From the sequence record OR958571.1: a DNA stretch of 64,000 nt. One strand, written 5' to 3'. This DNA comes from Escherichia phage 121/2022-2B. Under the pieces are notes generated by a model. It was not told the origin of the DNA and made no database searches. It saw only the letters and a program-made list of their open reading frames with translations. Position 1 is the stretch's first letter, and each line of letters begins with the position of its first letter. The translations under genes and the position numbers were made by a program. Shown here one piece after another: positions 16,416 to 16,827 of the stretch.

Positions 16416-16459
16416 TTAGTACCTTATATAAATTATAATACATTTTATGAAGCTAATAA

Positions 16460-16819
16460 TCAATACGGTTTAGCATCAAATTTTCTTTCAATTTCAGGCG
16501 TAAAATACAATTCTTTACCACGCTTGGAAAAGCGACCAATAATATGATAATTATTCTCATCAAACGTGATATTGCCAATATCCATAGCTTTCAACCAAAT
16601 ATCGATATTTCTGTCAAGCTTTATATCAAAATTCCAATACGGAGAACTATTACCGAAAATACTACAAGCGGATTCAGTGAAACAACTGCTATAAATCTTG
16701 TCTTTAGGAACTACTAATTGATAGACGCCTTTAATAAACTGAGGACCCTGCCATTTTGGTTGTTTCGCGTCTTTTTCTAATAGAATAGGGTAATAATTAA
16801 AATTCATATTTTCCGCCAC
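16460..16819 (-). CDS. hypothetical protein (~119 aa) between frd and td
   Basis: ORF fills the gap between the frd stop (16828) and td start (16415). Start codon uncertain (track start is non-ATG; alternative ATG about 16807). Confidence 0.45.
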   Translation of the reverse strand: MAENMNFNYYPILLEKDAKQPKWQGPQFIKGVYQLVVPKDKIYSSCFTESACSIFGNSSPYWNFDIKLDRNIDIWLKAMDIGNITFDENNYHIIGRFSKRGKELYFTPEIERKFDAKPY

Positions 16820-16827
16820 GCGTTATT

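Follow-up and report, generated by a model that had tools for sequence, protein, structure and literature searches.

A widespread, constrained accessory gene of family PHROG 1928 at the frd-td junction of a T4-like Escherichia phage

In bacteriophage T4 (NC_000866) the dihydrofolate reductase gene frd (145109..145690) and the thymidylate synthase gene td, which ends at 145112, share the four nucleotides (nt) ATGA, and zero open reading frames (ORFs) lie between them. Short, non-essential early-region genes of unknown function, variably present among T4-like phages, do occur between nucleotide-metabolism genes of T4, namely frd.1, frd.2, frd.3, nrdA.1 and nrdA.2. Other T-even phages carry an ORF between frd and td themselves, known as RB32ORF229c, ar1_242 or HY01_0224 and also found in T2, and these ORFs belong to the protein family PHROG 1928. 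Here we describe the same junction in a stretch of 64,000 nt from Escherichia phage 121/2022-2B (OR958571.1), called the window below, which is a T4-like (Tequatrovirus) genome segment with its frd-td region on the minus strand. A preliminary description stated that the T4 genes abut or overlap, as the T4 record bears out, and reported a 412-bp interval holding an ORF of about 119 amino acids (aa). The interval is exactly 16416..16827, between the td start at 16415 and the frd stop at 16828, and its one long ORF, from GTG 16819 to a stop ending at 16460, includes FTESACSIFGNSSPYWNF. Its coding sequence, called gene A here, is best read as a 115-aa protein on the minus strand (16460..16807, from ATG 16807 to TGA 16462-16460). 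Gene A is in the same family and at the same position as the PHROG 1928 members just named. It resembles frd.1 to frd.3, nrdA.1 and nrdA.2 in kind, but these belong to PF17438, PF03197, PF05798 and DUF4326 and are unrelated to it in sequence. The data described below leave almost no doubt that gene A is real and under constraint, and that it is an accessory gene from a family already known but uncharacterised.

The match of the gene A protein to the PHROG 1928 profile is strong (E=9.5e-36, residues 8-115 on positions 2-125 of 126). The family is labelled 'unknown function', neither Pfam nor NCBIfam has a model for it, and no structure of a member has been solved. The statement that the ORF contains no recognisable motif held up, with zero matches in Pfam, NCBIfam or PADLOC; the Pfam scan of the window protein returned no family even at E<=10. 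The identical protein is encoded on 341 public contigs and is already present in NCBI and UniRef. A tblastn search found 580 phage records, 204 of them at >=99% identity, 144 at 95-99% and 14 at 90-95%, with 218 of the 580 below 60% identity and in other genera. Most often the product is labelled 'hypothetical protein', as in RB14, RB32, RB51 (RB32ORF229c), AR1 (ar1_242), HY01 (HY01_0224), ime09, Shfl2 and hundreds more. When 1.84 billion representative proteins were searched exhaustively with a HMMER profile, 22 clusters matched at E<=1e-3. Of these, 20 are genuine (95-116 aa), and the long multi-stretch matches P0021 and P0023 were discarded as artefacts of repetitive reverse-transcriptase or low-complexity sequence. 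A second profile search, against 5.8 billion clusters, returned 21 proteins of 113-119 aa; each consists of one domain, none carries a Pfam domain or a fusion, and the named members among these all come from T4-like phages. The database-wide profile searches revealed no homologue in T4, in keeping with the absence of the ORF from the T4 junction. Gene A is thus not new: it is a catalogued, very common and uncharacterised accessory gene rather than a novel insertion. No paper on it was found in literature searches with RB32ORF229c, the PHROG identifier, the frd/td junction and Tequatrovirus anti-defence, and a search for a second copy across the whole window revealed no paralogue.

That the ORF might be untranslated, or have arisen by chance in a non-coding spacer, could be suspected from the fact that some records leave it unannotated. 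The T2 record LC348380 is an example, since its gene A (713-1060) is intact and 99% identical to that of the window but carries no annotation; the same record labels td only as 'hypothetical protein'. The substitution pattern rules this out. In Nei-Gojobori comparisons of all 10 pairs among the window, T2, RB33, Killian and PHB12, the ratio of non-synonymous to synonymous substitution rates (dN/dS) of gene A is 0.00-0.05 in 10/10 pairs, as against 0.08-0.29 for frd in the same genomes. Window and T2 differ in gene A by 14 synonymous and 0 non-synonymous substitutions. This pattern marks gene A as translated, as far as substitutions can tell, and homologues down to ~25% identity retain its length, position and motifs. 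A confident structure model, discussed below, also argues against a chance ORF, the probability of which we regard as practically nil.

The start codon had been called uncertain, and GTG 16819 (119 aa) is indeed one option that some annotations use, but the start can now be placed. The minus strand reads ...GTG TAT AAA TGA AAT AAC GCG TGG CGG AAA ATA TGA ATT TTA AT in this region. Homologue N-termini align at MNFNYY or M-Y-Y, the sequence GGCGGA (16812-16817) is a plausible Shine-Dalgarno (SD) element for ATG 16807, whereas GTG 16819 lacks one, and in public contigs the 115-aa form is called on 341 and the 119-aa form on 14. Because homologue N-termini, SD-like element and the commoner form agree, ATG 16807, giving a protein beginning MNFNYY, is the best reading of the sequence. 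In L010, one of two metagenomic contigs that are the closest relatives outside Tequatrovirus, the same ATG overlaps the frd stop. The segment from the GTG to the ATG (16808..16819, minus strand), which would add 4 residues and contains the SD-like element, is probably 5' untranslated region.

The protein offers little that resembles a catalytic site. Across the family alignments only Q16, W19, G27, G91, K95 and G97 are invariant, with L9, Y29 and F93 nearly so. The recurring motifs are LLExDxxQKKW, HGIY, GN and IGRFxKxG...F.P, and no Asp, Glu, His, Cys or Ser is conserved. The window protein is mildly basic, with an isoelectric point (pI) of 8.5 within a family range of 6.8-9.4. AlphaFold2 gave a poor model with 4 sequences, with a predicted local distance difference test (pLDDT) score of 61.5. 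With 23 family members it gave a pLDDT of 92 and a predicted template modelling score of 0.84, all five models scoring 91-92. The predicted elements are strands 6-12, 27-34, 38-40, 48-50 and 62-64, a helix at 68-76, and strands 80-82, 86-96 and 99-104. The model is a high-confidence prediction of a small, β-rich single domain that contains one helix.

Comparison of the predicted structure with the PDB gave no significant match, and a sequence-profile search of the PDB produced only noise (TagH and dynein, E>=0.04). Judged from the match descriptions, about half of the top 60 structure matches are barrels of the oligonucleotide/oligosaccharide-binding (OB), S1 or HIN type, including the HIN domains of p204 and AIM2, Teb1, Cdc13, RecO, LEF-3, TPP1, ribosomal S1, RRP40, the S1 domain of RNase E and enterotoxin B. 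In the order of its predicted elements, three strands followed by a helix and a long hairpin, the model is compatible with an OB fold, a five-stranded barrel with a helix between strands 3 and 4. Foldseek against BFVD at E<=0.1 found only uncharacterised or nameless proteins, and the named sources are all T4-like phages (Pectobacterium PM2, Serratia Muldoon, Erwinia Cronus, Aeromonas Ah1 and phiAS5). By the model, the fold would be at most a very diverged OB-like barrel, and it may be new.

These features bear on the few GenBank records in which gene A carries an enzyme name, namely 'putative homing endonuclease', 'putative dihydrofolate reductase' or 'putative glucose-1-phosphate adenylyltransferase'. 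The last two labels were rejected, as there is no DHFR_1 or NTP_transferase match in Pfam or NCBIfam. A free-standing homing endonuclease, or the remnant of one, was also considered. T-even genomes often have seg and mob endonuclease genes between conserved genes, records such as H25, H67 and H80 use this label, and the extra segment is flanked by the 9-nt direct repeat TAAATGAAA. However, no GIY-YIG, HNH, LAGLIDADG or other nuclease Pfam domain occurs in 23 family members, none of the His, Asp, Glu and Cys residues is conserved, and the protein is a single small domain of 115 aa without a structural match to nucleases. The fact that other records name the same ORF DHFR or glucose-1-phosphate adenylyltransferase also makes the label hard to trust. 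A nuclease is very improbable and is refuted as far as sequence can tell. The enzyme labels are unreliable and represent spill-over from the adjoining gene or spurious transfers.

The position of gene A is conserved well beyond the genus. Homologues lie immediately after frd in at least 5 other Tevenvirinae genera, including Jiaodavirus, Kanagawavirus, Moonvirus and Kagamiyamavirus, and overlap the frd stop in Mineola, CIP9, Moon, EcS1 and L010. In Jiaodavirus Mineola the homologue overlaps both of its neighbours. Further genes join it elsewhere: the order is frd-A-B-td in Moonvirus Moon and Kagamiyamavirus EcS1, and frd-A(111 aa)-B(119 aa)-C(68 aa)-td in Kanagawavirus CIP9. The metagenomic contigs L010 and L011, whose gene A is 63-66% identical to that of the window, have frd-A-B-C-td and frd-A-B up to the contig end, respectively. 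Gene B is a paralogue of gene A, with BLASTP E values of ~1e-4 to 1e-10 among family members, and both match PHROG 1928. It shares the N-terminal motif L-x-x-x-D-x-x-Q-K-x-W, the C-terminal motif G-R-F-x-K-x-G-x-E-x-x-F and a similar length (113-123 aa). It differs by its low identity of ~21-25% to the window protein and a longer β1-β2 loop, and it is absent from the window and from the Tequatrovirus loci examined. Gene C (PHROG 9550, 68 aa) is also absent from the window. It occurs in PYPS2T (locus L006, 2596-2802) and at locus L007 (2599-2805), where it overlaps the gene on either side. In one RefSeq record it is wrongly named 'flagellar biosynthesis protein'. Since gene C has homologues of 40-44% identity in unrelated phAPEC8-like phages, it is more widely mobile than gene A. 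The Pfam, NCBIfam and PADLOC scans returned no family for genes B and C either.

Within Tequatrovirus the frd-td slot exists in three states, with gene A in ~362 records, gene C in ~135 and nothing in ~32 (the T4 group). On these counts the T4 state represents ~6% of the genus at this junction. The notion of an accessory site holds, as the slot is variable, but gene A is its majority state and not an unusual one. A 40-mer spanning the T4 junction detected the empty ATGA arrangement in 59 records, ~32 of them T4 and close kin (RB55, RB59, vB_EcoM_112, HY03 and SG1 among them) and 27 Dhakaviruses such as IME08, Bp7 and WG01. The junction of RB69 (Mosigvirus) is also empty. Gene C carriers include the Yersinia phage PYPS2T and UTI-E4, and their gene C is 69-81% identical to that of CIP9 and L010.

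The segment had been described as inserted, and it is extra relative to T4, but a gain is unproven because lateral gain and repeat-mediated loss both fit. For loss speaks that the family sits after frd in many genera. The two copies of TAAATGAAA also point this way. The left copy (16826..16834, minus strand) covers the frd stop TGA (16828-16830), the right copy (16410..16418, minus strand) covers the td start codon (16415-16413), and joining them gives exactly the junction GTATAAATGAAACAATACC of T4, RB69 and IME08. The left copy is conserved in the window, T2, RB33, Killian and PHB12. The weight of this repeat is modest, since it is largely forced by the coding of frd ...YK-stop and td MKQ. 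For gain speak the empty junction in three sister genera and the sequence ATG AAA TAA C after the frd stop, which resembles a degenerate td start (ATG AAA CAA T) and is kept in all A-type phages examined. The ATG that overlaps the frd stop is the td start in T4, RB69 and IME08 and the gene C start in PYPS2T. In the window it opens a 2-codon mini-ORF, ATG AAA TAA (16831-16823, minus strand), 15 nt upstream of the gene A start, which could be a relic or a re-initiation device.

The identities of the neighbouring genes are also discordant, which favours gain. Window and L010 share 63% identity in gene A and 47% in Frd, PYPS2T and L010 share 81% in gene C and 49% in Frd, and L010 and CIP9 share 49% in gene A, 82% in gene C and 61% in Frd. 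PHB12 (MK524178) is classed as a Mosigvirus, yet its Frd is 95% identical to that of the window and 58% to that of RB69, with gene A at 93%. Its frd-A block looks like an intergeneric recombinant on sequence grounds, and since a phage classed as Mosigvirus has Tequatrovirus-type frd and gene A, blocks appear to move between genera. That T4 is a simple deletion derivative of frd-A-td was dropped as the sole explanation, because RB69 and the Dhakaviruses are equally empty and gene A is closer than Frd to L010/L011. By these comparisons the slot is reshuffled by recombination, and 'extra relative to T4' is the safe description.

In view of the above, we lean slightly towards the following explanation taken as a whole: gene A is a genuine expressed accessory gene of the T4-like nucleotide-precursor cluster and encodes a non-enzymatic binder made alongside the enzymes of that cluster. 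It would be expressed from the early/middle frd-td unit, as suggested by strand, tight spacing and what is known of T4 frd and td, and would be co-transcribed and probably translationally linked with these genes in the pre-replicative period. The protein would act by binding, and its target would be a nucleic acid, a ligand resembling a nucleotide or another protein. Binding is likelier than catalysis because there is no candidate active-site residue and the conserved positions are aromatic and basic. These positions, in the Q-x-K-W loop and the G-R-F-x-K-x-G hairpin, would lie on the usual ligand face of an OB fold. The narrower proposal of a non-catalytic OB-like binder is tentative, and we would not count on it. 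The near-invariance of gene A within the genus argues for a conserved partner, and the existence of T4, RB69 and JS98-like phages without it indicates that it is dispensable; the gene would travel between phages by recombination. Several points weigh against this explanation. No expression data for gene A were found. Co-transcription with frd and td is deduced from strand orientation, gene spacing and what is established for T4. The family members are no more than mildly basic, with a pI close to 7 in some, and this makes a weak case for nucleic-acid binding. Finally, the fixed synteny could reflect history only and not functional linkage.

Two more specific roles can be considered, neither of which is mutually exclusive with a non-catalytic binder. 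In the first, gene A has an anti-defence function, which the preliminary description named, beside accessory functions, as typical of insertions between core genes, and sits in a variable slot between such genes. The product would be a small binder that disables an immunity protein of the host or sequesters a signal of the immune response. Several T-even counter-defence genes are small ORFs of a similar kind. In favour of this role, the protein is small, consists of a single domain, is restricted to phages and can be dispensed with; a single genus shows all three states of the slot (A, C or nothing), and the cassette moves between lineages. However, gene A is near-invariant over hundreds of Tequatroviruses with dN/dS <=0.05, unlike an arms-race gene, and its place after frd is retained in at least 5 genera, which would be unusual for shuffled counter-defence cargo. 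Neither sequence nor fold similarity to solved phage anti-defence proteins was detected, and no literature report of such a role was found. The variable accessory slot of the suggestion stands, but the role itself found no support, as strong purifying selection and a fixed place fit a conserved partner at least as well; an anti-defence function is unlikely.

In the second, the protein is an accessory subunit or adaptor of the phage complex that synthesises deoxynucleoside triphosphates (dNTPs), for example one that bridges or modulates Frd and Td. This would be in agreement with a location that is always next to frd, with overlap of the frd stop in the five phages and contigs listed above, and inside the frd-td-nrdA-nrdB cluster. 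An adaptor would also fit the way gene A evolves, strongly constrained inside a genus and diverging faster from one genus to the next, roughly in step with Frd, itself a fast-evolving protein; in addition, A and B, as tandem paralogues, could pair as a heterodimer. On the other hand, the same pathway operates in T4, RB69 and the Dhakaviruses although they lack gene A, and the discordant histories of gene A and Frd show that the two are not strictly co-inherited, so that an adaptor is quite unlikely. A bolder reading is that A and its paralogue B form a structurally new or extremely diverged OB-like binding family that tunes or protects the phage deoxynucleotide supply. Its members might, for example, bind one of the enzymes in the dNTP-synthesising complex, or neutralise host factors by which nucleotides are sensed or depleted. 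This reading is a long shot. If true, such a role in dNTP supply would account for both the fixed place beside frd and td and the presence or absence of the gene among close relatives.

From the stop codon of gene A to the right repeat runs a spacer (16419..16459, minus strand) that contains the td SD element AAGGT (16421-16425) and may contain more. A consensus scan found a σ70-like element, TTGATT-17-TATTAT, at 16463-16435 (minus strand), starting inside the gene A stop region. The sequence TTAGCTTCA (16448-16456) upstream of TATAAT (16432-16437, minus strand) resembles, by consensus match, a T4 middle promoter of the MotA type. The spacer and its promoter-like motifs are conserved in T2, RB33 and Killian; PHB12 has 30 nt less at this place, and the promoter-like element is missing there. 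From these motifs, the spacer may add a td promoter in A-type phages, and since T4, without the spacer, cannot have the element, td transcription is perhaps different in A-type phages. No stable RNA fold was predicted for the spacer upstream of td (z=0.74), and no terminator or significant RNA fold was found in the 16416-16827 interval. An Rfam scan of 14000-18000 gave only one sub-threshold chance match and no RNA family in the interval.

The genes on either side show further variation. Upstream, frd (16828..17412, minus strand) encodes a protein with 87.6% identity to T4 Frd. Between frd and frd.1 the window has two minus-strand ORFs without a T4 counterpart, one of 80 aa without a Pfam match (17415..17657) and one of 111 aa with a DUF7247 domain (17666..18001); in T4 the gap from frd to frd.1 is 71 nt. 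PYPS2T, UTI-E4 and L010/L011 likewise have additional ORFs of this sort, and the region upstream of frd is therefore a variable slot too. Downstream, td is split into exon 1 (15864..16415, minus strand) and exon 2 (14539..14853) by an intron (14854-15863) with an intact I-TevI ORF of 245 aa (14998..15735). In T2, RB33, Killian and PHB12 td is uninterrupted, with 861 nt. As these phages share gene A but not the intron, intron and gene A assort independently. An Rfam scan at E<=0.1 reported no group I intron model for 14854-15863.

The observation itself changes little, since hundreds of database entries already list the ORF as a hypothetical protein. It does show that T4 is a poor reference for the frd-td junction, since only ~6% of Tequatrovirus-like records share its empty overlap. 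Gene A is more constrained than the adjoining DHFR gene, yet dispensable in T4, RB69 and JS98-like phages. Being strongly constrained and dispensable, it is a clean target for knock-out or knock-in experiments, and a structure or a ligand would assign a function to a family that spans several Tevenvirinae genera. The A/B/C cassette and the three alleles of the slot provide a compact example of the gain, loss and exchange of small genes between the nucleotide-metabolism genes of T-even phages.
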